From contig PWFH01000026.1 in the NCBI GenBank assembly GCA_003553795.1, forward strand, positions 84,711-108,710: 24,000 nucleotides of DNA, in the 5' to 3' direction. Below the pieces are notes generated by a model, which saw only the letters and a list, made by a program, of their open reading frames with translations, searched no databases and had not been told where the DNA came from. This DNA comes from Egibacter sp. (lineage in GTDB: Bacteria; Actinomycetota; Nitriliruptoria; Euzebyales; Egibacteraceae). Made by a program: the position numbers and the translations under genes. Positions 6,278 through 23,459 of this stretch are shown here, in pieces; the first letter of the stretch is position 1; each line of letters starts with the position of its first letter.

Positions 6278-7110
6278 TGGAGTTCACGAAGGTCCACGGC
6301 ACCGGCAACGACTTCGTCCTGCTGCCCGACCCCGACGACGCCCTGACGCTGACGCCCGGCCTCGTGCGGGCGCTGTGTGACCGCCACCACGGCCTCGGCG
6401 CCGACGGGGTGATCCGTCTCGCCCCCGCGCGCGAGGGGGTGGCCGGCGACGTCTTCATGGACTACCGCAACGCCGACGGCTCGCTCGCCGAGATGTGCGG
6501 AAACGGGGTGCGCTGCGTCGCGAAGTACGTTGCCGACCGTGGCCACGTCAGCGAGCGGGTGCGCGTCGACACCCGAGCCGGCGTCAAGGAGGTCGAGGTC
6601 ACCCTCTGGCACGAGGATGGCACCGCCGCGGAGCTGCGCGTCGACATGGGCGCGCCCGTCGGCATCGGCTCCGAGCGCATCGAGCTCAACGGGGCGGGCG
6701 ACATCGAGCTCACGACGCTGTCGATGGGCAACCCCCACGCGGTCATCGTCATGGGCGACCCGACCGCGGCGCCGCTCGCGGCATGGGCGGAGGCGATCAA
6801 CGCCGATCCGCGCTTCGCCGACGGGGTCAACGTCGAGGCCATCGGCGTGCCGCGGCTCGATCGCATCGAGGGCCGGATCCACGAGCGCGGCGTCGGGGAG
6901 ACCCTCGCGTCGGGCAGCGGCGCCGCAGCGATGGCCGTCGCCGCCCACGTCCGGGGCCTGGCCACCCGCGAGGTCACCGTCGCCCTGCCGGGCGGCATGC
7001 TCGACATCGTCTGGGGGGACGCGGCGCTCACCGTGACCGGGCCCGCCGTCGAGGTCGCCCACGGCGTCCTCGACGCCGCCTGGCTGCAGGCCGTGGAGGC
7101 GCCTTCGTGA
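6277..7110 (+). CDS. dapF: Diaminopimelate epimerase DapF (second catalytic Cys position reads Ser)
   Basis: [34 protein letters not shown] (first catalytic Cys), MGNPHAV, and [16 protein letters not shown] (Ser at codon 212, tcg 6910-6912, where ACGSGA/SCGTG is expected). The ATG at 6277 overlaps the miaA stop (TGATG). Confidence 0.85.
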
Positions 7111-8516
7111 CCGACGCGCGTGAGCAGGACGAGACCTCGCTCGAGCTCTCGCGCGCCGCACGGCGTCGCGCCGCGGCGCAGCGCATCCGCGACGACGCGC
7201 CGCAGGAGGGCGTGGCGATCTTCCGCCCGGTCGAGCAGGCCGTGCTCGTCGCGATCGCGCCGCCCGAGCGCACGCGCGCGCAGGTCGAGGCCGGCCTCGA
7301 CGAGCTCGAGCTCCTCCTCGACACCGCAGGTGGCTCGACGGTCGGGCGCGTCGTCCAGCGTCGTCACCGCCCCGACGTCGCGACGTTCATCGGGCGCGGC
7401 AAGATCGACGAGCTCGCTGACCTCTGCGCCGAGCTCGGCGCCGACGCGGCGATCTTCGACGACGAGCTCACCCCCGCGCAGCAGCGCAACCTCGAGGAGC
7501 GCCTCGGGGTCAAGGTCCTCGACCGCACGATCGTCATCCTCGACATCTTCGCCCAGCACGCCTCCTCCCGGGAGGGCAAGGCCCAGGTCGAGCTCGCCCA
7601 GCTGTCCTACCTGCTGCCGCGGCTGCGCGGCTGGGGCGAGGCGCTGTCGCGGCTCGGCGGCGGCATCGGCACCCGCGGGCCGGGGGAGTCCCAGCTCGAG
7701 GTCGACCGGCGCAAGCTCAACCGCCGCATCGCAAAGCTGCGCCGTGACCTCGAGGAGTTCGCGCGGACCCGCCGCCGCAAGAGCGCCGCGCGCTTCCGCC
7801 GCGCGGTGCCCACCGTCGCGCTCGTCGGCTACACCAACGCCGGCAAGTCGACCCTGCTCAACGCCCTCGCCGACGCCGACCTCCACGTCGCCGACCAGCT
7901 CTTCGCCACGCTCGACACGACCGCGCGCAAGGTGCCCCTGCCCGATGCGCGCACGATCGTGGCGACCGACACCGTCGGCTTCGTGCAGAAGCTGCCCACC
8001 GACCTCGTCGAGGCCTTCAAGTCCACGCTCGAGGAGACCACCGAGGCCGACCTCCTCCTCCATGTCGTCGATGCCGCGCACGACGACGTCGACGCGCAGA
8101 TCACCGCCGTCGAGGGTGTCCTCGCCGAGATCGGCGCCGACGCGGTGCCCTCGGTGCTCGTCCTCAACAAGGCCGACGTCGCCGACGACGAGGCGGTCGC
8201 GGCGCTGCGGCGCCGACACCCCGACGCCGTCGTCGTCTCGGCGCGCTCCGGCGAGGGCGTCGAGGCCTTACGGGCGAGGATCAGCAAGCGCGTTCCCGCA
8301 GCGCGTCGCCGGGTCGAGGTCGTCGTGCCGTATGAGCGTGGGGACCTCGTCGCCGCGGCGCACGACGACGGCGAGATCCACGTCGAGGAGCACCGTGCCG
8401 ACGGCACGCGCCTCGTCGCCGACGTGGGCCTCGAGGCCGGTCGCGCCCTCGCCCCCTACGCCGTCGCCGGTGACCCGTGGGTCGACGGCGACGAGGCTGG
8501 GGCGCAGGAGCCCTAG
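7107..8516 (+). CDS. hflX: GTPase HflX
   Basis: HflX N-domain ([10 protein letters not shown]...[17 protein letters not shown]...[16 protein letters not shown]), then G1 [10 protein letters not shown]3 DTVGF and G4 NKAD. The GTG at 7107 overlaps the dapF stop (GTGA). The track ORF 6495-8516 is trimmed accordingly. Confidence 0.9.
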
Positions 8517-9157
8517 AGGCTGCGCAGCACCGCGGTGACGCGGCCGAGGACCGCCGCCTCGCTCGCGGCGGGCACGGGGATCGGCTCGTAGGCCGGGTTC
8601 GCGGGGTCGAGGAAGACCTCGCCACCCGGCGTGCGGCGGAAGAACTTCACCGTCGCCTCACCATCGATGAGCGCCGCGCACATCTCGCCCTGCTCGACGT
8701 TGGCCTGCTGGCGGACGACGACGAGGTCGCCGTCGAAGACCCCGGCCTCGAGCATCGAGTCGCCGCGGACGGTGAGCATGAACAGCGAGCCCTCGCCGAC
8801 GAGGTCCCGGGGCAGGGGATAGCGCGCGAGGGCCTGCTCGTCGGCGATGACCGGCGCGCCCGCAGCGATGTCACCGAGGAGGGGGACCTCCCGCAGGCCC
8901 GGTGGCAGCGTCGATGTCGGCCGCTCCTGGCCCTCGGGGACGATGACCTCGATCGCCCGCGGCAGGGTCGGATCGCGCCGCAGGTAGCCACGGTCCTGCA
9001 GCGTCGCGAGCTGGTAGTGCACGCTCGACGTCGACTTGAGGCCGACGGCGTCGCCGATCTCGCGCACGCTCGGCGGGAAGCCGCGCGCGCGCACCGCGTC
9101 GCGGATGAAGGTGAGGATCTGCAGCTGACGCTCGGTGAGCGGCTCTTCGGCGGCCAT
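8513..9157 (-). CDS. lexA: SOS repressor LexA
   Basis: wHTH region ([44 protein letters not shown]), Ala-Gly cleavage site (IAAGAPV), and the catalytic Ser/Lys pair (VRGDSM ... ATVKFF). SD GAGGAG lies upstream of the ATG. Confidence 0.95.
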
Positions 9158-9186
9158 GAGGACTCCTCATCGACGGTGCTGTCGGC

Positions 9187-9215
9187 ACCGTAGCCGATCG
9201 GGCACGATCTGACAA
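9187..9215 (-). promoter_or_regulatory. Candidate lexA promoter (autoregulated)
   Basis: On the minus strand: TTGTCA (9215-9210), a 17-nt spacer, then TACGGT (9192-9187), about 30 nt upstream of the lexA ATG. The -35 overlaps SOS box 1. Confidence 0.5.
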
Positions 9216-9227
9216 ACATTTGTTCGA
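9212..9227. promoter_or_regulatory. SOS box 1 (LexA operator)
   Basis: ACAAACATTTGTTCGA matches 10 of 12 specified positions of the actinobacterial consensus TCGAAC-N4-GTTCGA. Confidence 0.65.
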
Positions 9228-9235
9228 CGAATCCG

Positions 9236-9264
9236 TTGACATCGAACAGCGGTTCGACCATCAT
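9236..9264 (+). promoter_or_regulatory. Candidate SOS-repressed promoter of the LysM gene
   Basis: Perfect -35 TTGACA (9236-9241), a 17-nt spacer almost fully occupied by SOS box 2 (box = 16 of its 17 nt), then -10 CATCAT (9259-9264). It lies 90 nt upstream of the ATG at 9354. Confidence 0.6.
9242..9257. promoter_or_regulatory. SOS box 2 (LexA operator, perfect consensus)
   Basis: TCGAACAGCGGTTCGA matches TCGAAC-N4-GTTCGA at 12 of 12 positions. Confidence 0.85.
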
Positions 9265-9268
9265 GGGG

Positions 9269-9284
9269 ACGAACAGCCGTTCGG
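9269..9284. promoter_or_regulatory. SOS box 3 (LexA operator)
   Basis: ACGAACAGCCGTTCGG matches the consensus at 10 of 12 positions, just downstream of the candidate -10 of the LysM-gene promoter. Confidence 0.65.
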
Positions 9285-9353
9285 GAGTGTAGCGGCCCCG
9301 GCGGCGCCACGTGGGTAGGCGGCGCGACGCCGAGGCCGCAGAGGGAGTGAGCG

Positions 9354-9701
9354 ATGTCGGAGGCCACGCGCGACCGTGGGACCGCCCGGACACGACGGCG
9401 ACGCGCCGCGGTGCTCGGCGTCGCACTCGGCGCCTTGGCGCTGACCGCAGGCCCGCTCGGCACGGCGTGGGGCGCCGACGGCGAGACGGTCGTGCCCGCG
9501 CAGGTCGGCACCGCTGAGCGCGTCGACCCCGAGGAGGTCCTCGTCGTGGTCGCGCCAGGGGAGACGATGTGGGAGCTGGTCCTGCCCCACGCCCCCGCGG
9601 GCGCCGATCCGCACGCGTTCGTCGCCGAGGTGGCCGCGCGCAACGGGGTCGATCCGGGCCGACTGGAGCCAGGGATGGCGTTGCGGGTGCCCCAGCGGTG
9701 A
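9354..9701 (+). CDS. ChiZ-like SOS-regulated membrane-anchored LysM-domain protein
   Basis: 115 aa. SD GAGGGAG precedes the ATG. The N-terminus is Arg-rich (TRDRGTARTRRRRA), followed by a TM helix (AVLGVALGALALTAGPLG) and a C-terminal LysM motif (VVVAPGETMWELV...VAARNGVDPGRLEPGMALRVP). It is divergent from lexA, with the same architecture and position as M. tuberculosis Rv2719c (from memory). Confidence 0.75.
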   Translation: MSEATRDRGTARTRRRRAAVLGVALGALALTAGPLGTAWGADGETVVPAQVGTAERVDPEEVLVVVAPGETMWELVLPHAPAGADPHAFVAEVAARNGVDPGRLEPGMALRVPQR

Positions 9702-9704
9702 GGC

Positions 9705-10253
9705 CTACGCCTCGGCGGCTCCGCCCATGGACCCCTGGTCCCCGTCCGGATCGGCATCGTCGTGGCCAGCGCCCCCGGTGGCGGGCGCGTCAGCGGCGGG
9801 CTCCTGGGTGCCGAGCGTGGCGAGCTCCCGCTCGAAGTCCTCGGTCCTCGTGAAGCTCTTGTAGACGCTGGCGAAGCGCAGGTAGGCGACCTCGTGGAGC
9901 TCGCGCAGGGCGAGGAGCACCTCGAGTCCCACCTCCTCGCTGGGGACCTCGTGGCGGTGGCTGTCGCGGAGGTGGCCCTCGACCCGGGCGACCGCGCGGC
10001 GCACGGCGGAGGGCTCGATCTCGAGGTTCTTCGTTGCCCGCAGGATGCCGGTCGCGACCTTGTCGCGGTCGAAGAGCTCGAGGTCCCCGCTGCGCTTGCG
10101 CACCCGCAGCACGGGCTGCTCGACCCGCTCGTAGGTCGAGAAGCGCTGGCCGCAGGCGCGGCACGCCCGGCGCCGGCGGACCGCGCCGCCGTCCTCGGCG
10201 CTGCGCGAGTCGATGACGCGGTCCTCGTCGAGCCCACAGTACGGACAGCGCAC
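9705..10253 (-). CDS. nrdR: Transcriptional repressor NrdR (Zn-ribbon + ATP-cone)
   Basis: MRCPYCG...CRACGQRFSTYERV zinc ribbon, then an ATP-cone (VRKRSGDLELFDRDKVATGILRA...). GTG start with SD GAGGAGG 9 nt upstream. There is an acidic, Gly-rich C-terminal tail. Confidence 0.9.
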   Translation of the reverse strand: MRCPYCGLDEDRVIDSRSAEDGGAVRRRRACRACGQRFSTYERVEQPVLRVRKRSGDLELFDRDKVATGILRATKNLEIEPSAVRRAVARVEGHLRDSHRHEVPSEEVGLEVLLALRELHEVAYLRFASVYKSFTRTEDFERELATLGTQEPAADAPATGGAGHDDADPDGDQGSMGGAAEA

Positions 10254-10284
10254 GGTTCACGACCTCCTCTCGACGTGCGGGGCC

Positions 10285-10428
10285 TGTGGATCCCCGGGGA
10301 CTCCTCCACGGCCCCGTCCACCGCATCGACGTCGTCGTCCACGATCCTCGGCGCCCGTCCACACCCCATCCACGGACTTCCGGCGAGCCGTCCAAGATGT
10401 CGTGGCAAGAGCGGGCTGCTCGTCCACA
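10285..10428 (+). promoter_or_regulatory. Phased array of GTCCAC (DnaA-box-like) motifs upstream of nrdR
   Basis: Same-strand hexamers: cTCCAC 10304, GTCCAC 10316, GTCCAC 10337, GTCCAC 10357, ATCCAC 10368, GTCCAA 10390, GTCCAC 10422, plus an inverted ATCCACA at 10285-10291. Start-to-start spacings are 12, 21, 20, 11, 22 and 32 nt. The best 9-mers are TCGTCCACA (8/9), and CCGTCCACA and TCGTCCACG (7/9 each), against the actinobacterial DnaA box TTGTCCACA. Confidence 0.45.
10390..10405 (-). promoter_or_regulatory. Candidate NrdR box A (facing nrdR)
   Basis: The minus strand reads CCACGACATCTTGGAC, which is 13/16 identical to box B. It lies 137-152 nt upstream of the nrdR GTG. It overlaps one unit of the GTCCAC array, so assignment is ambiguous. 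Confidence 0.4.
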
Positions 10429-10510
10429 GGGTCACCTCGCGGGGGCGTCTCTGCCCACGTCATGGCGCTGCTACCGTCGCCGGCAAGAACACCATAGCCG
10501 ATGGATCACA

Positions 10511-10526
10511 CCACAACATCTTGGGT
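10511..10526 (+). promoter_or_regulatory. Candidate NrdR box B (upstream of nrdJ)
   Basis: CCACAACATCTTGGGT. The core CACAACATCTTGGG fits the published NrdR-box pattern acaCwAtATaTwgtgt at 13 of 14 core positions by my alignment. Confidence 0.55.
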
Positions 10527-10541
10527 CGGGTGGGTTCGAGC

Positions 10542-10557
10542 GTCATGCATCTTGGGG
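10542..10557 (+). promoter_or_regulatory. Candidate NrdR box C (tandem partner of box B)
   Basis: GTCATGCATCTTGGGG shares CATCTTGGG with box B at exactly 31 nt offset, the typical tandem NrdR-box spacing. The left half-site is degenerate. Confidence 0.45.
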
Positions 10558-10676
10558 AATTCTCCCTCACACCTGCTTGACGCCGCCCCCGGGACGAGGC
10601 AAGGTAGCGAGGCCGGCACGGCAAATCACAAGCTTGGAGTTCCACCAACGGGGGCTTCGCCCAGCGAGGAGTTCAC

Positions 10677-13445
10677 ATGGTCACCACACGTCAGGCCCTG
10701 CGCGCGGTCGAGTCCGACGGCCACACCGGCCTCAAGCTCGACCGGCACTTCACCACCGATGGTGCGCACCCCTACGACGAGGTGTCGTGGGAGCGGCGTG
10801 ATGCGGTGATCACCGACTGGAAGACCGGCGAGGTCGCCTTCGAGCAGCGCGACGTCGAGTTCCCCACGAGCTGGTCGCTCAACGCCACGACGATCGTCGC
10901 GCAGAAGTACTTCCGCGGGACGCTGGGCACCCCCGAGCGCGAGTCGAGCGTGCGACACATGATCGACCGCGTCGCCGACACCATCACGCGCTGGGGTGTC
11001 GACGATGGCTACTTCGCCGACGAGGAGTCCGCGGAGGTCTTCAACCACGAGCTCAAGCACCTGCTCGTCAACCAGAAGATGGCCTTCAACAGCCCCGTCT
11101 GGTTCAACTGCGGTGTCGAGGACAAGCCGCAGTGCTCGGCCTGCTTCATCCTCTCGGTCGAGGACCAGATGAGCTCGATCCTCAACTGGTACGTCGAGGA
11201 GGGCACGATCTTCAAGGGCGGCTCGGGCTCGGGGGTCAACCTCTCCAACATCCGCTCGAGCCTCGAGCCGCTGCGTGGCGGCGGGCAGGCCTCCGGCCCG
11301 GTGAGCTTCATGCGCGGCGCCGACGCCTCGGCGGGCACGATCAAGTCCGGCGGCAAGACCCGTCGCGCCGCGAAGATGGTCATCCTCGACGTCGACCACC
11401 CCGACGTCGAGGAGTTCATCTGGTGCAAGCGCAACGAGGAGATGAAGTCCCGCGCGCTCGCCGGCGCCGGCTTCGACATGAGCTTCGACAGCGCTGACTC
11501 CGCGACGATCCAGTACCAGAACGCGAACAACTCCGTCCGCGTCGACGACGAGTTCATGCGGGCCGTCGAGCAGGGCCGTGACTACGACCTCAAGGCCGTC
11601 ACGACCGGCGAGTCGCTCAAGACCGTCAACGCCCGCGACCTCATGGACCAGATCGCCCAGGCGGCCTGGGAGTGCGCCGACCCCGGGATGCAGTACGACA
11701 CGACGATCAACGACTGGCACACCACGCCCAACGCCGGTCGCATCAACGGCTCGAACCCCTGCTCGGAGTACATGCACCTCGACAACTCCGCCTGCAACCT
11801 CGCGAGCCTCAACCTCCGCAAGTTCGAGAAGGGCGGGGTCTTCAACGTCGACGACTTCACCCGCGCGGTGGAGATCACCTTCACCGCCCAGGAGATCATC
11901 GTCGGCAACTCCAGCTACCCGACCGAGCGCATCGCCGAGAACGCCCGCGCCTACCGCCAGCTCGGGCTCGGCTACGCCAACCTCGGCGGCCTGCTCATGA
12001 GCCAGGGGCTGGCCTACGACTCCGACGAGGGCCGGGCCTGGGCCGGGGCGATCACCGCGCTCATGACCGGTCACGCCTACCGCACCTCGACCGAGCTCGC
12101 GCGGGTGCAGGGGCCGTTCGAGGGCTATGAGCGGGACCGCGACGGCATGCTCCGGGTGCTCGCCAAGCACCGCGACGCCGCGGAGGCCCTCGACGACGAG
12201 CGCGCGCCCGCGGGCGTCCTCGACGCCGCGCGCCATGCGTGGAACGAGGCCGTGGAGGCCGGCACCGAGCATGGCGTGCGCAACGCCCAGGCCTCGGTCC
12301 TCGCGCCGACCGGGACCATCGGGCTCATGATGGACTGCGACACCACCGGCATCGAGCCCGACCTCGGGCTGGTGAAGATGAAGAAGCTCTCCGGTGGCGG
12401 TTCGATGCGCATCGTCAACCACACGGTGCCCGCCGCGCTCGAGAAGCTCGGCTACCAGCCCGAGCAGGTCGAGGCGATCGTCGCCTACATCGACAAGCAC
12501 TCGACGATCGAGGGCGCGCCGGCGCTCAGGGAGGAGCACCTCCCGGTCTTCGACTGCGCGATGGGCACCCGGTCGATCGCGCCCATGGGGCACGTGAAGA
12601 TGATGGGTGCGGTGCAGCCGTTCATCTCCGGGGCGATCTCGAAGACGATCAACCTGCCGGAGTCGGCGACCGTCGAGGACGTCGCCGAGACCTACATGGA
12701 GGGATGGCGCCTCGGGCTCAAGGCCGTGGCGATCTACCGCGACAACTGCAAGGTCGCCCAGCCGCTCGCCATCGCCAAGGACGAGTCCAACGAGGCGAAG
12801 GCCCCGGCGACCAAGGAGGAGGCCGCCGAGCGCGGTGTCACCCGTCGGCGCCTGCCCAAGCAGCGCCCGAGCCAGACGATCTCCTTCACCGTCGGCGACG
12901 CCGAGGGCTACCTCACCGCCGGTGAGTACCCCGGCGACGGCATCGGGGAGATGTTCGTCAAGCTCGGCAAGCAGGGCTCGACGCTGTCGGGGGTCATGGA
13001 CGCGTTCGCCATCGCGGTGTCGATCGGGCTGCAGTACGGCGTGCCGCTCGAGGAGTTCGTGAAGAAGTTCACGAACATGCGCTTCGAGCCGGCCGGCATG
13101 ACCGACGACCCCGAGGTGAAGTTCGCCTCGAGCGTCCTCGACTACATGTTCCGACGGCTCGCGATCGAGTACCTGCCCGCCGAGACCCGCCAGGAGCTCG
13201 GGATCTACTCTCTCGAGGAGCGCAACGCCCAACTCGACGCGCAGTACGGGCCGGCGCCAGAGAAGGCGCAGGAGCCGACCGTCGACGTCGAGGGCCAGAC
13301 GGTGCTGCCGGTCGCCGAGGGACGCTCGGAGATCGACGACATCTACGGCGACGCGCCGATGTGCTTCTCCTGCGGCGTGAAGATGCAGCGCTCCGGGGCG
13401 TGCCACGTCTGCGCCCAGTGCGGCACGACGACCGGCTGCTCGTAG
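10677..13445 (+). CDS. nrdJ: Class II (adenosylcobalamin-dependent) ribonucleoside-diphosphate reductase NrdJ
   Basis: 922 aa with SD GAGGAG 5 nt before the ATG. RNR motifs are present: FNSPVWFNCG, SACFI, GGSGSGVNLSNIR, GSNPCSEY and SISKTINLP-like GAISKTINLPE. The Cys-rich C-terminal tail (CFSCGVKMQRSGACHVCAQCGTTTGCS) is typical of NrdJ. Confidence 0.95.
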   Translation: MVTTRQALRAVESDGHTGLKLDRHFTTDGAHPYDEVSWERRDAVITDWKTGEVAFEQRDVEFPTSWSLNATTIVAQKYFRGTLGTPERESSVRHMIDRVADTITRWGVDDGYFADEESAEVFNHELKHLLVNQKMAFNSPVWFNCGVEDKPQCSACFILSVEDQMSSILNWYVEEGTIFKGGSGSGVNLSNIRSSLEPLRGGGQASGPVSFMRGADASAGTIKSGGKTRRAAKMVILDVDHPDVEEFIWCKRNEEMKSRALAGAGFDMSFDSADSATIQYQNANNSVRVDDEFMRAVEQGRDYDLKAVTTGESLKTVNARDLMDQIAQAAWECADPGMQYDTTINDWHTTPNAGRINGSNPCSEYMHLDNSACNLASLNLRKFEKGGVFNVDDFTRAVEITFTAQEIIVGNSSYPTERIAENARAYRQLGLGYANLGGLLMSQGLAYDSDEGRAWAGAITALMTGHAYRTSTELARVQGPFEGYERDRDGMLRVLAKHRDAAEALDDERAPAGVLDAARHAWNEAVEAGTEHGVRNAQASVLAPTGTIGLMMDCDTTGIEPDLGLVKMKKLSGGGSMRIVNHTVPAALEKLGYQPEQVEAIVAYIDKHSTIEGAPALREEHLPVFDCAMGTRSIAPMGHVKMMGAVQPFISGAISKTINLPESATVEDVAETYMEGWRLGLKAVAIYRDNCKVAQPLAIAKDESNEAKAPATKEEAAERGVTRRRLPKQRPSQTISFTVGDAEGYLTAGEYPGDGIGEMFVKLGKQGSTLSGVMDAFAIAVSIGLQYGVPLEEFVKKFTNMRFEPAGMTDDPEVKFASSVLDYMFRRLAIEYLPAETRQELGIYSLEERNAQLDAQYGPAPEKAQEPTVDVEGQTVLPVAEGRSEIDDIYGDAPMCFSCGVKMQRSGACHVCAQCGTTTGCS

Positions 13446-13449
13446 TGTG

Positions 13450-13537
13450 AACCGCCACCCGGATGGCATGGGGATCCGCCAGCTCGTGTCAGTGGATCCG
13501 CCATCCGGTGTCAGTGGTTGCGCCAGGACTGACACGC
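13450..13537 (+). repeat. About 22-nt tandem repeat array with embedded competing hairpins, directly after the nrdJ stop
   Basis: Units: GGATCCGCCAgctcGTGTCAGT (13472-13493), GGATCCGCCAtccgGTGTCAGT (13494-13515) and GGTTGCGCCAggACTGACAC (13516-13535, with the 8-mer inverted), plus a degenerate unit at about 13450-13471 (CCGCCA at 13452). ACTGACAC can pair with either upstream GTGTCAGT. CCGGATGG (13459-13466) pairs with CCATCCGG (13501-13508). Confidence 0.7.
13507..13537 (+). terminator. Possible nrdJ terminator hairpin (no U-tract)
   Basis: GTGTCAGT (13508-13515) and ACTGACAC (13528-13535) form an 8-bp perfect stem 62 nt after the nrdJ TAG. There is no trailing T-run, which is common in actinobacteria but weakens the call. 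Confidence 0.35.
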
Positions 13538-13981
13538 CATGAGTGAGGCCAGGCTGGCCGGTGAGGTGTCGCCGGTCGGCCTGGCCTCCGGCGTCGCGCG
13601 TGCGGAGCAGACACGCGAATCCCTGCCCGCGGCGTCCGGCTCGTTCCGCGGTCCGATCCCTGCAGGTGGTGAGCGGCCTTGAGCGTGACCGATGCGTTGT
13701 CCTGGGCGACAGCGGAACAGGAAGGGGTGGTCGGCTCCCGCCCCGGCGTCAACATGTCGTGGTGTTCGCGCCGGGGAGTAAGGACAGCACACCGGCAACG
13801 CGGTGGCGGGGCCGCGGCGCTCCGGTCGCGGTGCCACCGCAGGGCCGCGGCGAGCGCAGCAACCGCCCGCGAGAGGGTCTGTCGCACGCACTCTCGGCGC
13901 AATTGGCGTGGTGTGGCGGCCAAGCCGGTCGCCGAGGGCACCGACATGCTGCCAGCAACCGCCGAGTTGGTCTTCTGAACG

Positions 13982-14167
13982 GTGTTGGGCCTCATCGCCC
14001 TCGTTGGGCTCATCGCCGCCGGGCTCTGGGCCGCGAAGCATCGGTACTTCGGCTATCGGCGCGTGCGAGCACAGGCGGACCAGGCCTCTGCCCCCGACCC
14101 GCCGCACGAGCGCAGTCTGAAGCGTTCGGACGGCGCCGGGCCGCGGGTGCCCCCTGACCAGCGATGA
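13982..14167 (+). CDS. Possible small single-pass membrane protein (61 aa); weak call
   Basis: GTG start with no SD. The N-terminal helix is LGLIALVGLIAAGLWAA, followed by a basic stretch (KHRYFGYRRVR). GC3 is about 83% by my count, against >90% in neighbouring genes. An internal near-duplicate (GTTGGGCCTCATCGCC at 13984 and GTTGGGCTCATCGCC at 14003) keeps CTCATCGCC in frame. Confidence 0.3.
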   Translation: MLGLIALVGLIAAGLWAAKHRYFGYRRVRAQADQASAPDPPHERSLKRSDGAGPRVPPDQR

Positions 14168-14311
14168 TGGAGGTCCCCACACCGCAGCTCCGTCGGCGCC
14201 GCCATGCGCGCACCCGCCGTCCCTTGACGTCGGTCAGGCGCACCTCAGCCGCAGGGGCGGGGTCGGACCCTTCGCGCACCGCCGCCCAGAGACCGTGCTC
14301 CGCCGCAGGGG

Positions 14312-14342
14312 TGTGAGTCTCGCCATTCTGGCGAGACTCGCA
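14312..14342 (+). other. Strong hairpin in the heliorhodopsin upstream region
   Basis: GAGTCTCGCC (14315-14324), loop attct, then GGCGAGACTC (14330-14339). This is a perfect 10-bp stem extendable to about 13 bp (14312-14342). Function is unknown (attenuator, processing site or protein-binding site). Confidence 0.5.
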
Positions 14343-14610
14343 GAACGATCCCAAGAGGAGAGGCGGGACAGCGTCAATGCGCCACCCCCCCTGAGGGGGG
14401 CGAGCGTCGCCGGGGGACCACGCACCCGGCTGGCGGCCCCCGCAGGGAGGGCCCACGGCATCCCGGCGAGGGGGCCGTGGCCCGCACCGGTCCGTCACGC
14501 GGCTTGGCGCCGGCCCGGAGGGCGCAGAGTCCGTGATCGCCACGGTCACGGGTGCTGGTGGCCGAGCCGCCGGGGCGCTGACGGCCAGCGCCGCAACGGG
14601 AGGATTCACG

Positions 14611-15429
14611 ATGACCGATGCCTTGCTCTTCCCCGGCATGACCGAGGGGGACATCACCGCGCGGCTGCGCCGGCTGCGGTGGCAGAACGCCGCGATGGGG
14701 GTGCTCCATCTCGGCCAGGCCGTCGCGGTGTGGGCGCTCAACGAGACGAAGTTCGCCCTGCCGGTGACGTCGACCTACCCCGCCGGTCCGCCTGGCACCC
14801 CGCCGGCGCTGTGGGAGCCGCCGATCGGCTCGGTCGACATCGGCCTGTGGATCTTCGTGTTCCTCGCGCTCAGCGCGTTCTTCCACTTCCTCATCGCGTC
14901 GCCGTGGTACTTCCCCCGCTACGCCGCCGACATCCGCCGCGGCAAGAACTCCGCGCGCTGGGTCGAGTACTCGCTGTCCTCCTCGGTGATGCTCATCGTC
15001 ATCGCCGCGATCACCGGCATCGTCGACATCGCGGCGTTCATCGCGATCTTCGGCGCGAACGTGGCGATGATCGCCTTCGGGGAGATCCAGGAGCGCTACG
15101 AACGCCCCGGTGGCTCCCTGCTGCCCTTCTGGCTCGGGACCCTCGTCGGACTCGTTCCCTGGGTGGCGATCGGCTTCTACCTCTTCGGCGTCGGCGCGGA
15201 GGGCTACGACCTGGGGCAGGTCCCCGGTTTCGTGTGGGTGGTCTTCTTCGCGATCTTCGCCTTCTTCTTCTCCTTCGGGCTCAACCAGTGGCTGCAGTTC
15301 AAGCGCTTGGGCCCGTGGCGCAACTACGTCGTCGGTGAGACGACCTACGTCGTGCTGTCGCTGGTTGCGAAGTCGCTGCTGGCGTGGCTGCTGTTCGCCA
15401 ACGTGCTCGCCGCCGCGGCCTTCGACTGA
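14611..15429 (+). CDS. Heliorhodopsin (retinal-binding 7-TM photoreceptor, inverted topology)
   Basis: 272 aa from the ATG at 14611, with SD GGGAGGA (14598-14604) 6 nt upstream. Family-defining strings are recalled from the prototype 48C12: GVLHLGQAVAVWAL, LSAFFHFLIAS, RWVEYSLSSSVM (counter-ion Glu), LLPFWLGTLVGLVPW and YVVLSLVAKSLLAW (Schiff-base Lys). The track ORF starts at 14533, but that N-terminus has no SD. Confidence 0.9.
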   Translation: MTDALLFPGMTEGDITARLRRLRWQNAAMGVLHLGQAVAVWALNETKFALPVTSTYPAGPPGTPPALWEPPIGSVDIGLWIFVFLALSAFFHFLIASPWYFPRYAADIRRGKNSARWVEYSLSSSVMLIVIAAITGIVDIAAFIAIFGANVAMIAFGEIQERYERPGGSLLPFWLGTLVGLVPWVAIGFYLFGVGAEGYDLGQVPGFVWVVFFAIFAFFFSFGLNQWLQFKRLGPWRNYVVGETTYVVLSLVAKSLLAWLLFANVLAAAAFD

Positions 15430-15467
15430 CCCCTCGATGGCGCCGCTCGCCGGCGGCCGCGTGGAGT

Positions 15468-15488
15468 CGGGGCCGGCGGCGGGCCCCG
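15468..15488 (+). terminator. Weak candidate terminator hairpin after the heliorhodopsin gene
   Basis: CGGGGCC, loop ggcggcg, then GGCCCCG: a 7-bp GC stem 39 nt after the stop, with no U-tract. A second GC hairpin follows (CCCGCG...CGCGGG). Confidence 0.25.
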
Positions 15489-15571
15489 CGAGGTCCCGGC
15501 CGCGGGCAGCTAGGGTCGCAGGTTCCCGGTTCCGATCTCCGCGGAGCCGCTGCCGAGAGGAGACCTTCACC

Positions 15572-16318
15572 ATGCCCTCCGATGACGTGCCCTTCGACCT
15601 CTCAGGCCGTGTCTACGCGGTCACTGGCGTGAGCAGCGGGATCGGCGAGGCCGTCGCTCGCCGACTCGTGGGCGCCGGCGCCCGCGTAGCCGGCAGCGCC
15701 CGTCGCGCCGAGCGGCTCGAGGCCCTGGCTGGCGAGCTCGGAGGAGCCTTCGCGCCGGTGACCGGTGACCTGCGGGACCCCTCGACCGCCGAGGCGCTCG
15801 TGGCCACCGCCGAGGATCGCCTGGGAGGTCTGTCGGGAATCATCCCTAATGCTGGCATCGGCCGCTACGGCTCGATCATGGACTGGTCGGACGATGAGCT
15901 CGCGGAGATGGTCGACGTCAACGTGGGCGGCACGCTCTGGCCGATCCGCGCGGCGATCCCGCGGCTGCGCGCCCGTGGGGGCGGCGACATCGTCATCGTC
16001 GCGAGCGTCGCCGGTCTGCGCGGCGGCGACGACGAGGCGGTCTACGCCGCGACGAAGCACGCCCAGGTCGGCCTTGCCGGGGCCCTCGACCGGGAGCTGC
16101 ATCCCGAGGGGATCCGTGTGACGGCGGTCTGCCCTGGCGGGGGGGCCACCGAGTTCGCGATGGGGGCCGGCCGCACCCCGGACATGCCCGGCCTCGCCGA
16201 CATGCTCACCGCCGACGACGTCGCCCACGCGGTGCTGACGTGCCTCTCCCAACCTCGGCACGTGCGCACCTTGCAGTGGGTCCTGCGCGCGCAGCCCGAG
16301 GAGAGCTGGGCGACCTGA
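15572..16318 (+). CDS. Short-chain dehydrogenase/reductase (classical SDR)
   Basis: SD GAGAGGAG precedes the ATG at 15572. Motifs are TGVSSGIGEA (TGxxxGxG), PNAGIG (NAG), a catalytic Ser in VASVAG and YAATKHA (YxxxK). The track ORF 15110-16318 is trimmed to this start. Confidence 0.85.
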   Translation: MPSDDVPFDLSGRVYAVTGVSSGIGEAVARRLVGAGARVAGSARRAERLEALAGELGGAFAPVTGDLRDPSTAEALVATAEDRLGGLSGIIPNAGIGRYGSIMDWSDDELAEMVDVNVGGTLWPIRAAIPRLRARGGGDIVIVASVAGLRGGDDEAVYAATKHAQVGLAGALDRELHPEGIRVTAVCPGGGATEFAMGAGRTPDMPGLADMLTADDVAHAVLTCLSQPRHVRTLQWVLRAQPEESWAT

Positions 16319-16337
16319 GAGGGGTGCGGGCGCCCGC

Positions 16338-17060
16338 TCAGGATCCGGGGGCTCCGACCGGCAGGAGGTAGAGCGGGGTGTGGCGCTCGTCGAGGCCGAG
16401 CACGGCGCGCACCTCGTCGTCGTCGAAGGCGCCGATCGGTACGCTCGCGAGGTCGAGCGCGACGGCCTGCAGCAGGACGTTCTGCGCGGCGTGCCCTGCC
16501 TCGAGGGCGACGTAGCGCTCCGCGCGCGCGCCGTAGCGGCCCTCGGTGCGCTCGACGACGCCGCTGAGCACGAGCACCGCCGGGGCCTCGGCGACCTCCT
16601 CCTGGCCGAGGGCCGCGTCTGCGAGGGCACCGCGGAGGTCCGCGCCCGAGACGGACTCGAGGGCGTGCTGCTCCGGGCGGTAGTGCGCGAGGCCGTCGGC
16701 GGTGGCGAGGAACACCTCGAGGGGGTAGGTCGCACCGGCCGAGGGCGCGGTCCGCTTGCCCGACGGGTCGCTGAGCCCCTGGGCGGCCCACAGCAGCTGG
16801 CCGGTCTCGGCCTTCGAGAGGTCGCGGTCGTCGTAGGCGCGCACCGAGCGCCGCTCGGCGAGGACCTCCTCGAGGCTCCGCGGTCCCGTCTCCTCAGGGG
16901 CCGGGAGCGCCTGCACGTCGCCGGCCTGCTCGTCGGTGGGCTCCATCGGCTCCTCCTCGGGTGCGCATGCGGCCGCGATGGCCACGACGACGCAGAGCAC
17001 GAGGCTACGGGCGGATCGGACGCGCACGGTGCTCACCTCGCCGGTCGGTCGCCCTCCCAT
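16338..17060 (-). CDS. SagB/ThcOx-type nitroreductase-fold dehydrogenase with an N-terminal lipoprotein-like signal
   Basis: SLEEVLAERRSVRAYDD...LLWAAQGLSDPSGKRTAPSAGATYPLEVFL...YVALEAGHAAQNVLLQA...PIGAFDD resembles the SagB/ThcOx family as I recall it. The N-terminus is RVRSARSLVLCVVVAIAAAC followed by an acidic linker. The start is uncertain: in-frame candidates are GTG 17105, ATG 17060, GTG 17036 and GTG 17027. Confidence 0.7.
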   Translation of the reverse strand: MGGRPTGEVSTVRVRSARSLVLCVVVAIAAACAPEEEPMEPTDEQAGDVQALPAPEETGPRSLEEVLAERRSVRAYDDRDLSKAETGQLLWAAQGLSDPSGKRTAPSAGATYPLEVFLATADGLAHYRPEQHALESVSGADLRGALADAALGQEEVAEAPAVLVLSGVVERTEGRYGARAERYVALEAGHAAQNVLLQAVALDLASVPIGAFDDDEVRAVLGLDERHTPLYLLPVGAPGS

Positions 17061-17200
17061 GCTCCTACACCCGCCCGCGCTCCGCAGGCCAGGCGTGCGC
17101 CGCACGGCCGGCTGGCACGGGGCGCTCGCGTGCCCAGCCGCGTGCGTGGCAATCCTCCTTGATCCAGGGCCGACGAGCGTGACGGGCGGAGGTGGAGCGC

Positions 17201-18520
17201 ATGCGGGACAGGCTCGCGGACCGCGTCGAAGCCGCGACGTCGCCGCACCGCGACCGCTACGTCGACTTCCTGCGGGTCAGCGCCCTGGCGGCGGTCGTCG
17301 TGGGGCACTGGCTCATCCCGGTGTTCGAGCCCGTCGACGGTACCTACGCGGTGCGCTTCATCATGACCGAGGAGCCGTGGACGCAGTGGGCGACGTGGCT
17401 CTTCCAGGTCATGCCGGTGTTCTTCATCGTCGGCGGCTACGCCGGCGCGGTGGCCTGGATCCGCGCGCGCGAGCGCGGCGAGCGGCCCGAGGCGTGGGCC
17501 AGCGCTCGCGCCCGGCGCCTGCTGCGCCCCCTGCTGCCCCTCCTCGTGCTGTGGGTGGGTCTCGTCGTGCTCGGCGACGCGCTCGGCGTCGAGGGGCGCT
17601 ACCTCACGCTGGCCTCCCAGAGCGCCCTCGTCGCGTCGTGGTTCATCGCCGTCTACGTCGTCGTGACCGTCGCGGTGCCGGTGACGCTGCGCCTCGACGC
17701 GCGGGTGGGGCTGTGGCTGCCGGTCGCGCTCGTCGCGCTCGTGGCCGTTGCCGATGCCCTCGCCGCGGCGGGCCTCGACGAGGCGCAGTGGACGAGCTTC
17801 CTCTGGGTGTGGTTCGCCGTGCACCAGCTTGGGATCGTCTGGCATCGCCGGGGGCTGCCCACGCCGGCGCAGGGCGCGCTGCTGCTCCTCGCGGGGCTCG
17901 CCGCCCTCGGGGCGCTCGTCGGGCTCGCGGGCTACCCCGTCGACATGGTCGCCGAGGTCGACGGCGCGACGAACGCCACCCCCCCGTCGCTGGCGATGCC
18001 CGCCCTGGCCACCGCCCAGCTCGGCCTCATCGCCCTGCTGCGCGCACCGCTCGAGCGGGCGCTGTCGCGACCGGGGATCTGGGCGCTCGTCGCGCTCGCG
18101 GGCTCGCGGATAATGACGGTGTTCCTGTGGCACATGACCGCGCTCGTGGCCGTCGCCGTCGGCCTCGACGCGGCGGGGGCGCTGCCGCTCGCCGCGGCGC
18201 TCGGGTGGGGCTGGTGGGTGAGCCGTCCGGTGTGGCTCGCGCTGTGCGCCGCGGCGCTCGCCGTGCTCGTCGTGGTGGCCGGTCGTGCCGAGCGCCCACC
18301 GCGCCTCACGCCGGCGAGGGTGCCGCGACCGGTCGCCGTGGCCGTCGGGGCGCTCGGCGTCGCGGTCGCGTTGGGCACCCTCGCGGCCGGGGGCGTCCAC
18401 GACCCCGACGGTCCGCTGGGGCTCGCGGCCTGGCCGCTCGCCGGCCTCGTCGCAGCCCTCGCGCTGCTGGGGGTGCTCAGCCCGGCCCGCCGTGGCGAGG
18501 GCGGCGTCGGCGCCCGCTGA
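17201..18520 (+). CDS. Acyltransferase-3 family integral membrane protein
   Basis: About 10 TM helices. The N-terminal RDRYVDFLRVSALAAVVVGHW resembles the acyltransferase-3 signature. The ATG at 17201 lies 8 nt after GGAGG (17188-17192); the track start GTG 17192 is an alternative. Confidence 0.6.
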   Translation: MRDRLADRVEAATSPHRDRYVDFLRVSALAAVVVGHWLIPVFEPVDGTYAVRFIMTEEPWTQWATWLFQVMPVFFIVGGYAGAVAWIRARERGERPEAWASARARRLLRPLLPLLVLWVGLVVLGDALGVEGRYLTLASQSALVASWFIAVYVVVTVAVPVTLRLDARVGLWLPVALVALVAVADALAAAGLDEAQWTSFLWVWFAVHQLGIVWHRRGLPTPAQGALLLLAGLAALGALVGLAGYPVDMVAEVDGATNATPPSLAMPALATAQLGLIALLRAPLERALSRPGIWALVALAGSRIMTVFLWHMTALVAVAVGLDAAGALPLAAALGWGWWVSRPVWLALCAAALAVLVVVAGRAERPPRLTPARVPRPVAVAVGALGVAVALGTLAAGGVHDPDGPLGLAAWPLAGLVAALALLGVLSPARRGEGGVGAR

Positions 18521-18633
18521 GGCCCCCGTCGCGGGCATCTCGGCAACGCCGGTGACGCTCGGCACGCACACGGGCGAGGGAGCGGGCACGCTCCGGACGG
18601 TAGCGCGCAGTCCTGAGCCCTCGGAGGTCCCCC

Positions 18634-19164
18634 ATGGCCGATACCGCTCGACGCCTCCGGCCCACGGCCCTCCTCGTCGTCGCGGTCGTGGCCGTCGCCG
18701 TCGTCGCCTGGGCCGCGTCGGACTCGGTGACCGCCGAGCGCGAGGCCGCCACGCTGCCCGACGTCGCGCTCGTCGACCTCACCGACGACACCCGGGAGGT
18801 CACCCTCGCCGAGCTCACCGGGCAGCCGCTCGTGGTGAACTTCTACGCCTCGTGGTGCCCTCCCTGCGTCGGTGAGATGCGTGAGGCCTTCGGTCCGGTC
18901 GACCGGGAGCGCGAGGACGTCGTGTTCGTCGGCGTCGCGCTGCAGGATGACCCCGACGCCGCGCTCGACGTCGCCCGCCGCACCGACGTCGACTACGCCC
19001 TCGTCGCCGATGCTGACGGTGCCCTCTACCAGGCCTTCGGCCTCGCGTCGATGCCGGCGACGGTCTACCTCGGCCCCGACGGCGAGGAGCGTGGTCGCCA
19101 CAACGGCGCGCTCACCCGCGCCCAGCTCGAGTCGCAGATCGCCGAGCACCTCGACCGGCCATGA
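18634..19164 (+). CDS. TlpA/ResA-family membrane-anchored thiol-disulfide oxidoreductase
   Basis: SD GGAGG lies 6 nt before the ATG. There is an N-terminal anchor (ALLVVAVVAVAVVAWAA) and a thioredoxin fold with FYASWCPPCVGEM (CxxC). Confidence 0.85.
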   Translation: MADTARRLRPTALLVVAVVAVAVVAWAASDSVTAEREAATLPDVALVDLTDDTREVTLAELTGQPLVVNFYASWCPPCVGEMREAFGPVDREREDVVFVGVALQDDPDAALDVARRTDVDYALVADADGALYQAFGLASMPATVYLGPDGEERGRHNGALTRAQLESQIAEHLDRP

Positions 19165-20114
19165 GCGAGCTTCCGCTGCTGTTCGCCTTCACCGCGGGCC
19201 TGCTCGCCACGGTGAACCCGTGCGGCTTCGCGATGCTGCCCGCCTACCTCTCGTTCTTCCTCGGCCTCGACGCCGGCGACGCCGGCGACGGCGGGACGGC
19301 ACCGCGGCGCTCCGCCGGCGCTGCGGCCGGCATCGCCCTCGGCGTCGGAGGGCTCACCGCCGCGGGCTTCGTCGTCGTCTTCGGCGGTGTCGGCCTGCTG
19401 CTCGCCCTCGGCATCGAGTGGATCGTCCCCGCGATGCCGTGGACCGCCATCGCCGTGGGCGTCGGCGTCGTCGGGCTCGGCGGCTGGCTGCTCGCCGGGC
19501 GCACCATGCCGGTCCCGGCGCTGCGCGCCGGTGGGGGCGCCGGTGCCCGGGGCGCCTTCGCCTTCGGGGTGAGCTACGCCCTCGCCTCGCTGTCCTGCAC
19601 GCTGCCGGTGCTGCTCACCGTCATCGCCGCCGCCTTCGCCCAGCCCACCCTCGGCGCGCGCTTCGCCGTCGTCGGCGCCTACCTCGCCGGCATGACCGGC
19701 CTCCTGCTCGCGGTGACCGTCGCGCTCGGCGTCGGCAAGGCCTCGCTCGTGCGCCGCCTGCGTGCGCTCACCCCGATGCTCCAGCGCCTCGCCGGCGGCG
19801 TGCTCGTGCTCGCGGGGCTGTGGGTCATCGCCTACTGGGCGGTCATCCTCGCCACGGGCCTGCCCGCCGAGGAGGTCGCCCTCGTCGACCGCAGCGCCGC
19901 GGTCATCACCGACGCGCTCGCGCGGCGGCCGCTGACCGCCGGCGGCCTCGCGCTCGTCGTGGTCGCCGCCGGCGCGCTGCTCGCCTGGCGCGAGCGGTCA
20001 GCCGCCCGCGCCGTCCGCGACCGCGAGCGCTGCGAGGGCGTGTGCGCGCGGGCGCGGCGCACCGCCCGGGACGCCGCCGAGCGGGAGGATCAGCCCTCGC
20101 GCAGTGAGCGGTAG
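19161..20114 (+). CDS. ccdA: Cytochrome c biogenesis / DsbD-type thiol-reductant transporter CcdA
   Basis: ATGA overlap with the upstream thioredoxin gene. It is polytopic, with the two conserved Cys motifs ([17 protein letters not shown] and [14 protein letters not shown]). An Arg/Glu-rich C-terminal tail overlaps the pgi 3' end by 25 nt. Confidence 0.8.
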
Positions 20115-21718
20115 CGCCGGATGAGGGCGTTGGTCGAGCTGTCGTGGACGAGCTCGGGCTCGGCGGCGGACTGCAGCTCCGGGGAGATGCGCCCGGCGAG
20201 CACCTTGCCGAGCTCGACGCCCCACTGGTCGAAGGAGTTGATGTCCCAGAGCACGCCCTGGGTGAAGACCTTGTGCTCGTAGAGCGCGACGAGCTGGCCG
20301 AGCACCCGCGGGGTGAGCGACGGCGCGAGGATCGTGCTCGAGGGCCGGTTGCCCGGGAAGGTCCGGTGGGGGATGAGCTCGTCGGCGACCCCCTCGGCGG
20401 CCACCGCGGCGGCGGGCTTGCCGAACGCGAGCGCCTCGGACTGCGCGAGGAGGTTCGCCGCGAGGAGGTCGTGGTGCAGCTGATGGGGGTGGGTGGGCCG
20501 GGCGGTGCCGATGAAGTCGCACGGCACGAGCTCGGTGCCCTGGTGCAGCAGCTGGTAGAAGGCGTGCTGGCCGTTGGTGCCGGGCTTGCCCCAGACGACC
20601 GGGCCGGTGTGCCAGCCGACCTCCTCGCCCTCGAGGGTCACGCGCTTGCCGTTGCTCTCCATGTCGAGTTGCTGGAGGTAGGCGGGGAAGCGCGCGAGCT
20701 CCTCGCTGTAGGGCAGGACCGCGTGGCTGGCCGCCCCGAAGAAGTTCACGTACCACACGCCGAGGAGGCCGAGCAGCGCGGGCATGTTCGCCTCGAGGGG
20801 GGCGCTGCGGAAGTGCTCGTCCATCGTGTGGAAGCCCTCGAGCATCTGCGTGAAGCCCTCGGGCCCGAGGGCGACCATGAGGGAGAGCCCGATCGCCGAG
20901 GTCATCGAGTAGCGGCCGCCGACCCAGTCCCAGAACTCGAACATGTTCTCGCGGTCGATGCCGAAGGCCTCGACCTTCTCCGCGGCGGTCGACACCGCGG
21001 CGAAGTGCGAGGCGACGGCGTCGTCGCCGAGCGCGCCGGTGAGCCAGTCCCGTGCGGTCGTGGCGTTCGTGAGCGTCTCGAGGGTCGTGAAGGTCTTCGA
21101 GCAGACGATGAAGAGGGTCTCGGCGGGGTCGAGGTCGCGCAGCGACTCGGTGACGTCGGTGCCGTCGATGTTCGAGACGAAGCGGAAGGTCAGCGAGCGG
21201 TCGCTGTGCGCCTTGAGCGCCTCGTAGGCCATCGCCGGGCCGAGGTCGGAGCCGCCGATGCCGATGTTCACGACGTTGCGGATCGGCTTGCCGGTGTGGC
21301 CGGTCCACGCGCCGTCACGGACGCGGTCGGCGAAGTCGGCCATGCGGTCGAGCACGCGGTGCACGGCGGGGACGACGTTCTCGCCGTCGACGGTGATCTC
21401 GGCGTCGGCGGGCGCCCGCAGGGCGGTGTGCAGGACCGCGCGGTCCTCGGTGGTGTTGATGCGCTCCCCGGCGAACATCGCCTCGATGCGTCCCGGCAGG
21501 TCGGCGCGGCGGGCCAGCGAGACCAGCAGGGCGATCGTGTGGTCGGTGACGCGATGCTTGGCGTAGTCGAGGTAGAGGTCGCCGACCTCCAGGCTCATCC
21601 GCTCGCCGCGGTCGGGATCCTCATCGAAGAGGTCGCGGAGGTGGGTGTCGGCCATCGCGGCGTGGTGCCGCTCGAGGGCGGCCCACTCGTCGGTGTCGGT
21701 GAGGGGCGCTGCGTCCAC
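20090..21718 (-). CDS. pgi: Glucose-6-phosphate isomerase
   Basis: 542 aa from the GTG at 21718, with SD GAAGGAG 5 nt upstream. Motifs are [40 protein letters not shown] and [11 protein letters not shown]. The 1135-aa track ORF is a read-through extension of this frame. Confidence 0.9.
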
Positions 21719-21757
21719 GTCGACTCCTTCTCGGTTGGTGCCGTCGCCCCCGATCAT

Positions 21758-21791
21758 CGCGCGCGGCTGCGGCCTACGCGACCCGCGCGCG
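21758..21791 (-). terminator. Candidate terminator hairpin after the L,D-transpeptidase gene
   Basis: CGCGCGCGG (21758-21766) pairs with CCGCGCGCG (21783-21791) in a 9-bp GC stem, beginning 17 nt past the stop at 21808. No U-tract. It could also belong to the pgi promoter region. Confidence 0.3.
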
Positions 21792-21807
21792 GCCCGGCCG
21801 GGGTGGC

Positions 21808-23361: not shown

Positions 23362-23459
23362 CTCCCACTCGTCCCCTCGTCAGCCCCGCCGTGTCAGGGC
23401 GCAGCCAGCGAAACGTAGCGTGAGGTAGACGCGCCGTCGAGCCATCTTGGGCCCTACTC

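Follow-up and report, generated by a model that had tools for sequence, protein, structure and literature searches.

Heliorhodopsins (HeRs) have been described together with several partner proteins, and published work shows that HeRs regulate the partner in three cases: glutamine synthetase (PMC9529153), photolyase (PMC9769723) and OmrDE, an ABC transporter (PMC11109279). The positively charged cytoplasmic loops of HeRs are reported to mediate partner binding (PMC11109279). Published datasets already hold the HeRs of Nitriliruptor alkaliphilus and Euzebya. In this study, we analysed a HeR gene located on a stretch of 24,000 nucleotides (hereafter, the window) from Egibacter sp. (contig PWFH01000026.1 of assembly GCA_003553795.1), a high-GC bacterium of the class Nitriliruptoria known from soda-lake metagenomes.

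An earlier reading of these letters (the original prediction) had placed the HeR gene directly after a block of lexA, nrdR and nrdJ and proposed that the protein is a light sensor coupled to the DNA damage response, to deoxynucleoside triphosphate (dNTP) supply or to envelope redox, which, if true, would be a new output for heliorhodopsins. The results described below demonstrated that the gene encodes a canonical heliorhodopsin. We consider it likely that this protein acts as a light sensor, by analogy with characterised HeRs, that its position after lexA, nrdR and nrdJ is an accident of layout without functional meaning, and that its partner is not identifiable from the locus; this degree of confidence applies to the reading as a whole.

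The window encodes a canonical heliorhodopsin

The HeR coding sequence (14611..15429, plus strand) specifies 272 amino acids (aa) followed by a stop codon, and was assigned from profile matches, alignment with 48C12 and an AlphaFold model. Its start codon is well supported, since a Shine-Dalgarno sequence, GGGAGGA (14598..14604, plus strand), can be read 6 nt 5' of the ATG, and a 93% identical homologue in a public metagenome-assembled genome (MAG) was likewise called as 272 aa. The Pfam model Heliorhodopsin (PF18761) matched the open reading frame (ORF) over its entire length (model positions 1-242 of 242; E=1.5e-82; 277 bits; cutoff, 26.7), and the NCBIfam equivalog NF038020, 'heliorhodopsin HeR', scored 261.5 bits (cutoff, 100). 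The top PDB matches were three 48C12 entries (E about 1e-68; the best, 6su3, E=1.9e-68), and TaHeR followed with an E value of about 1e-42. Identity to 48C12 was 48-49% over the full length.

All four motifs quoted in the original prediction aligned to 48C12. GVLHLGQ corresponds to GVFHLLQ in 48C12 (H33 = H23) and LSAFFHF to LSALFHF (H92 = H80), the RWVEYSLSSSVM motif is identical in the two proteins (counter-ion E119 = E107), and VLSLVAKS is also the same in both. The Lys of the seventh transmembrane helix, proposed beforehand as a check, was therefore retained, with the Schiff-base residue K254 aligned to K241. Besides, S88, N113, Q226 and S250 of the window HeR correspond to S76, N101, Q213 and S237 of 48C12. 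H33, H92, E119 and K254 were invariant in an alignment of 35 HeR homologues sharing 52-93% identity. The 272-aa ORF is thus a genuine canonical heliorhodopsin of the actinobacterial group containing 48C12, and on this point the original prediction was borne out.

Among the matches listed, 45 (cluster representatives) showed 66-93% identity to the window HeR, after which identity dropped to 57% or less, delimiting a sub-clade. The members of this sub-clade that could be placed were from Nitriliruptoraceae MAGs and from metagenomes of soda lakes or brines. The sub-clade might interest biophysicists, as the extracellular face of the protein meets brine at about pH 10.

Predicted structure, topology and function

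An AlphaFold model of the HeR, built on the homologue alignment, reached a pLDDT of 90 and a pTM of 0.86, and contained seven long helices and an AB beta-hairpin with strands at 49-53 and 73-76. In Foldseek comparisons, the model superimposed on 6su4 with a TM-score of 0.92 and a root-mean-square deviation of 1.5 Å, and the TM-scores to 48C12 and TaHeR structures (0.89-0.92) exceeded those to type-1 rhodopsins (0.53-0.70). The loops for the topology count were taken from the AlphaFold helices, as a crude Kyte-Doolittle profile failed to resolve seven helices. In these model loops, 14 Lys and Arg residues lay on the side of the N-terminus and the BC, DE and FG loops and one on the side of the AB, CD and EF loops and the C-terminus. 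Because of this split, the N-terminus is predicted to be cytoplasmic, and the in silico positive-inside count indicates the inverted, N-in topology that had been anticipated. The basic residues on the predicted cytoplasmic side include K231, R232 and R237 in the FG loop and five Lys or Arg residues in the BC loop.

By analogy with characterised HeRs, the protein would bind all-trans-retinal at K254 with E119 as the counter-ion, would pump no ions, and would undergo a slow photocycle with a long-lived photo-intermediate. By the same analogy, it may serve as a light sensor whose basic cytoplasmic loops directly contact a partner protein, in the cytoplasm or in the membrane, and alter its activity. 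The partner would not be identifiable from the locus, at which the co-directional short-chain dehydrogenase/reductase (SDR) gene 142 bp downstream is the sole candidate.

No crt or blh genes were found in the window by Pfam scans of all plausible ORFs, in agreement with the original prediction. A locus whose HeR is 80% identical to that of the window (L082) also encodes a type-1 rhodopsin (PF01036) at 18094-18837, ca. 7 kb downstream of its HeR gene, so that retinal is probably available to members of the clade.

A conserved gene block ends with nrdJ

The gene for the class II, B12-dependent ribonucleotide reductase NrdJ (922 aa; 10677..13445, plus strand) is the last gene of a conserved block, recX-rny-miaB-miaA-dapF-hflX-lexA-nrdR-nrdJ, which stops at the nrdJ stop codon. 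The HeR gene does not follow this block directly, as had been stated, since nrdJ and HeR are separated by 1,165 bp (13446-14610) in which no gene can be recognised.

The nearest relative was a MAG contig (L081; GCA_003551885.1) whose HeR is 93% identical to that of the window. In blastn comparisons, the window and this contig were collinear in two blocks of ca. 90% nucleotide identity, 8506-13443 and 14598-23362, the latter aligning to 9988-18739 of the relative. The 1,154 bp between the two blocks showed no similarity to the 5,045 bp found at the same place in the relative. The breakpoints coincide with the nrdJ stop codon and with a position 13 bp 5' of the HeR start codon, at the Shine-Dalgarno sequence. 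Within the 5,045 bp of the relative, two genes for CW_binding_2 proteins lie on the minus strand. The product of one (5555-7702 of L081) has a glucose/sorbosone dehydrogenase (GSDH) domain as well; the second, whose product has CW_binding_2 alone, is the gene immediately upstream of HeR. Co-transcription of GSDH with certain HeRs from freshwater has been reported (PMC8612252).

Three further relatives, L096, L098 and L097, with NrdJ proteins 85, 80 and 79% identical to that of the window, retained the order recA/recX…lexA-nrdR-nrdJ and diverged right after nrdJ. The region following nrdJ contained four unknown ORFs and a type I restriction-modification system (HsdM/HsdS) in L096 (12574-22418), genes for DUF4037, a rhodanese and a PAS-GAF-SpoIIE protein in L098 (13490-21626), and genes for a PA-domain protein and the toxin-antitoxin pairs PhdYeFM/PIN and HigB/HTH_3 in L097 (12997-22772). 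Neither HeR nor the SDR gene was present within 10 kb in these three contigs. From these gene orders, a housekeeping block that is deeply conserved is read as ending at the 3' end of nrdJ, where a variable region starts. Unrelated genes gather at the border of such a block, and for this reason it says little about the function of a gene that it adjoins strongly syntenic genes.

HeR genes have different neighbours in other genomes

The neighbours of the window HeR were not found beside its other close homologues. The HeR gene lies between genes for a DEAD helicase and bPH_2 at 87% HeR identity (L085, from the same metagenome as the 100% identical contig L084), between GntR-DUF1648 and AhpC/Redoxin at 80% (L082), between an amidase and an M81 peptidase at 79% (L001), between UPF0102 and a ComM-like Mg-chelatase at 76% (L083), and between MscS and HepT at 71% (L087). 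Neither nrdJ, the SDR gene nor any other neighbour seen in the window stood beside HeR in these five loci. The recurrence of nrdJ, SDR, SagB or TlpA linkage, which the original prediction had proposed to look for across HeR-encoding genomes, thus did not appear in these five contexts at 71-87% HeR identity.

A broader survey was performed by tblastn with the window proteins on the best 80 of at least 596 HeR loci in GTDB. Genes for NrdJ, NrdR and LexA were found near HeR at a single locus (L025), and this count of one nrdJ in 80 loci compares with a rough chance expectation of ca. 0.4 (for a 10-kb neighbourhood and genomes of ca. 2 Mb). Homologues of the nitroreductase, acyltransferase, TlpA and CcdA-like proteins encoded downstream in the window were found at none of the 80 loci. 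An SDR gene (50% identity) lay less than 1 kb from HeR only in L025 and L030, which have a local cassette in common, with the SDR upstream of HeR and an antisense 135-aa gene in between.

When the 142 genes immediately adjoining HeR were counted by Pfam family, the census gave glutamine synthetase (8), NmrA/DUF2867 (4), HTH_17 with B12-binding regulators (4), Abhydrolase_2 (4) and GSDH (3, in 70 census loci), and Ribonuc_red, adh_short, Redoxin, Nitroreductase and Acyl_transf_3 were outside the top 25 families. These counts are approximate, as the home-made ORF caller was weak on high-GC DNA and the sample was weighted toward low-GC freshwater lineages; high-GC loci were read from database gene calls or targeted Pfam scans. 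At four loci from Acidimicrobiia and Chloroflexota, the same-strand gene right after HeR belonged to one cluster (L023, 10808-11677; L046, 11057-12112; L059, 10741-11589; L062, 10232-11182). This cluster probably accounts for the HTH_17 and B12-binding counts of the census, and its members probably resemble LitR/CarH-type light-responsive regulators and represent the published 'MerR family' class of HeR neighbours.

The region upstream of HeR carries no LexA or NrdR operator

The variable spacer from the nrdJ stop codon to HeR (13446..14597, no strand assigned) must hold the HeR promoter. Since this spacer has no counterpart in the 93% relative, in which blastn and tblastx returned high-GC noise only, the promoter DNA of HeR is not conserved even at a short evolutionary distance. 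Three ORFs in the spacer, 13489-14013 (minus), 13543-14157 (plus) and 13982-14167 (plus), had no Pfam or NCBIfam match, and a frame plot gave a weak coding signal only around 13840-14170. No tRNA genes were found in the spacer, and an Rfam search of the whole window at gathering thresholds gave no match; thus neither nrdJ nor HeR has a riboswitch nearby, for cobalamin or otherwise. A scan for sigma-70 promoters found no site, and its sole terminator-like match was inside HeR, the scan being uninformative at 73% GC.

LexA boxes were scanned with the consensus TCGAAC-N4-GTTCGA and were found only at 9212, 9242 and 9269 (span, 9212-9284), in the intergenic region between lexA and a YneA-like ORF. 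The box at 9242-9257, TCGAACAGCGGTTCGA, is perfect, and the flanking copies at 9212 and 9269 have two mismatches each; upstream of HeR, the best site (13641) had three. The textbook NrdR-box consensus had no match anywhere in the window. Two exact copies of CATCTTGGG, 31 bp apart at 10517 and 10548 (10517-10556), lie ca. 120-160 bp 5' of nrdJ and are plausibly a pair of NrdR operators. With this box definition, derived ad hoc from the window itself, no such tandem was found 5' of HeR, and a single half-site with one mismatch (14350, minus strand) was the only match. HeR would be transcribed from the non-conserved spacer and would not be under the control of LexA or NrdR.

The spacer has some further features. 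The ORF at 13982-14167 (plus; 61 aa) shows a coding-like GC3 pattern and would encode a single hydrophobic helix, LGLIALVGLIAAGLWAA, with a basic tail behind it; Pfam gave no match, and none of the loci compared had a homologue. At 13472-13515, two copies of a 22-bp sequence, GGATCCGCCAGCTCGTGTCAGT, form a tandem direct repeat, 27 bp past the nrdJ stop, and an inverted repeat with 14-nt arms, TGTGAGTCTCGCCA and TGGCGAGACTCGCA, and a 3-nt loop is located at 14312-14342, ca. 270 bp 5' of HeR.

Alternative explanations of the locus

Several observations weigh against a chance placement with no partner at the locus. The HeR of a distant lineage (L025) lies within ca. 4 kb of lexA-nrdR-nrdJ and beside an SDR gene. 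Bulzu et al. reported that genes for thioredoxin, peroxidase and catalase are statistically enriched around HeRs (PMC8612252), and an AhpC/Redoxin gene adjoins HeR in the 80% relative (L082). In the window itself, HeR and the SDR gene are on the same strand, separated by a 142-bp gap in which a scan found no terminator-like structure; the fold z-score of this spacer (-0.07) is evidence neither for nor against a terminator.

The last of these observations may imply that HeR and the SDR gene form a two-gene operon, and that light-activated HeR binds the SDR and modulates its NAD(P)-dependent activity. The SDR (15572..16318, plus strand; 248 aa) is a classical, YdfG-like member of its family (adh_short, E=1.9e-46) and has its own Shine-Dalgarno sequence, GAGAGGAGA. 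The pair is kept in the 93% relative, 50% identical SDR genes are found less than 1 kb from HeR in L025 and L030, and Kim et al. 2024 (PMC11109279) name the SDR family as one of ten kinds of neighbour that often share an operon with HeR, with operon calls that include gaps of more than 100 nt. However, the pair was found only in the species group of the window (metagenome contig L084) and in the 93% relative, and was missing at HeR identities of 87, 80, 79, 76 and 71%. Three closer homologues of the SDR (63-67% identity), in other Nitriliruptoraceae or related contigs, had no HeR nearby, and the protein falls in a widespread YdfG-like subfamily with thousands of matches at 61-67% identity that is common in Actinomycetota. 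In L025 and L030, the SDR is upstream and an antisense gene separates it from HeR; in the census of 142 neighbours, adh_short was not in the top 25 families. Besides, the HeR-SDR spacer is 71% identical to that of the 93% relative, whereas the coding regions are 90-92% identical. No NCBIfam model reached its cutoff for the SDR and its best PDB relatives were generic; hence no substrate can be assigned. On balance, we regard a functional HeR-SDR pair as unlikely.

A second explanation is that the HeR works primarily as a light harvester with two chromophores, for which exogenous xanthophylls would be recruited via a lateral fenestration, rather than as a partner-binding sensor; this has been proposed for HeRs in general. 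According to a preprint, HeRs share a conserved carotenoid-binding site, and their inverted topology is accounted for by the access that it gives to external carotenoids (bioRxiv 10.1101/2025.11.27.691015); the window is without genes for retinal or carotenoid synthesis. However, the report is a preprint only and nothing at the HeR locus bears on it; bacterial HeRs are not known to have any output in energy conversion, and a high-GC actinomycete HeR showed no pumping. We therefore hold this explanation to be very unlikely.

The genes downstream of the SDR gene suggest a third explanation, in which HeR, the SDR and the products of these genes would form a light-responsive module tuning extracytoplasmic redox or envelope acylation. 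The genes in question encode a SagB-type nitroreductase that is a predicted lipoprotein (16338-17105, minus strand; TIGR03605 at its cutoff), an Acyl_transf_3 protein (17192-18520, plus strand), a ResA/TlpA-like redoxin (18634-19164, plus strand) and a CcdA-like membrane protein of 317 aa (19161-20114, plus strand). This cluster (16338..20114) was common only to the window and the 93% relative. The evidence for the module consists of co-location in these two close genomes and the published enrichment of redox genes near HeRs, and we consider it highly improbable; if true, the module would be a lineage-specific case of the association between HeRs and redox genes described by Bulzu et al. (PMC8612252).

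The gene map of the original prediction needs correction, since nrdR and the nitroreductase gene are on the minus strand and the Acyl_transf_3 gene had been omitted. The nitroreductase was indeed SagB-type and predicted to be exported: its signal is of the lipoprotein type, ending in a lipobox Cys (…LVLCVVVAIAAAC; RVRSARSLVLCVVVAIAAAC followed by AP), on an N-terminal extension to about 17030. The proposed TlpA-CcdA pair stood in its first member; for the second, Cys motifs of the CcdA/DsbD style (NPC; LSCTLPVL) were the support, and no Pfam or NCBIfam match was obtained even at E<=0.1. The 317-aa ORF has 4 bp (19161-19164) in common with the redoxin gene; it may encode a divergent CcdA missed by current profiles.

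The weakest explanation is the coupling originally proposed, in which HeR would signal light, as a proxy for UV damage or for the photolysis of adenosylcobalamin, to SOS, NrdR and NrdJ or to the TlpA-CcdA and SagB-type envelope-redox genes: it has in its favour the proximity of these genes in the window genome and the 93% relative, the arrangement in L025, the published enrichment of redox genes near HeRs and the Redoxin gene beside HeR in L082, but it is extremely improbable, as synteny breaks at the nrdJ stop codon in all relatives compared, nrdJ occurs at one of the 80 surveyed loci against a rough chance expectation of ca. 0.4, the four envelope genes are without homologues at the other surveyed loci, HeR has no SOS or NrdR box, the nitroreductase gene is on the opposite strand, and TlpA-CcdA is more than 3 kb off, past three other genes. 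It had been stated beforehand that nrdJ and redox-gene adjacency unique to this genome would be fortuitous, and the coupling idea fails by this test because the adjacency was limited to this species group. These observations leave chance placement of a canonical HeR, probably a sensor, as the preferred explanation.

Other genes of the window

The first gene in the window is recX (58-561), followed by rny (1176-2594), a small multidrug-export-like gene (2628-3113, minus strand) and miaB (3172-4599). An unassigned ORF follows before miaA (frame ending at 6277), and dapF (6211-7110), hflX (frame ending at 8516) and lexA (8513-9157, minus strand) come next. An ORF of 115 aa resembling YneA/LysM (9354-9701, plus strand) is divergent from lexA; its match to YneA, a suppressor of cell division in the SOS response, was weak, with 22.6 bits where the NCBIfam cutoff is 60. 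nrdR (9705-10253, minus strand) is divergent from nrdJ. Close NrdJ homologues were often 1,250-1,515 aa long with the intein/homing-endonuclease domains PF14890 and PF14528 (P0246, P0248, P0265, P0267, P0279, P0301 and others); the 922-aa NrdJ of the window is intein-free. With its lipoprotein-type signal, the nitroreductase would be located outside the cytoplasm, an unusual place for a flavoprotein of this family, and it has no obvious twin-arginine motif. After the CcdA-like ORF, genes for PGI, an L,D-transpeptidase and DUF4015 are all on the minus strand.

Comparison with described heliorhodopsins

The published class of HeR-SDR operons (PMC11109279) resembles the window in having a classical SDR gene immediately downstream of HeR on the same strand. 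It differs in its gaps, which range from -4 to 56 nt in examples from that paper as compared to 142 bp here, and the pair in the window was not conserved beyond the 93% relative.

The HeRs with described partners, AbHeR (glutamine synthetase), TfHeR (photolyase) and OcHeR (OmrDE), share with the window HeR the protein family and the positively charged cytoplasmic loops. Unlike the situation in these systems, no glutamine synthetase, photolyase or ABC transporter gene adjoined the window HeR in Pfam scans. Glutamine synthetase, the commonest neighbour in the survey (8 loci), was found at none of the loci of this HeR lineage.

The HeRs of Geodermatophilaceae (bioRxiv 10.1101/2024.05.16.594530) are like that of the window in belonging to high-GC Actinomycetota, in their canonical H23 and H80, and in diverse neighbourhoods free of any pattern. 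No pumping was detected for these proteins, their hosts belong to the class Actinomycetes and not to Nitriliruptoria, and their genes are mostly opposite to their neighbours (bioRxiv 10.1101/2024.05.16.594530).

As compared to 48C12 from a freshwater actinobacterium (PDB 6su3, 6su4 and 6uh3), the window HeR, known here from its sequence, has an N-terminus ca. 10 residues longer, falls in a separate sub-clade and comes from a haloalkaline, high-GC host of Nitriliruptoria. All eight chromophore-site residues and the AB beta-hairpin are the same in the two proteins, the predicted fold superimposes on that of 48C12, and the window HeR is one more canonical member from Nitriliruptoria, within a haloalkaline sub-clade.

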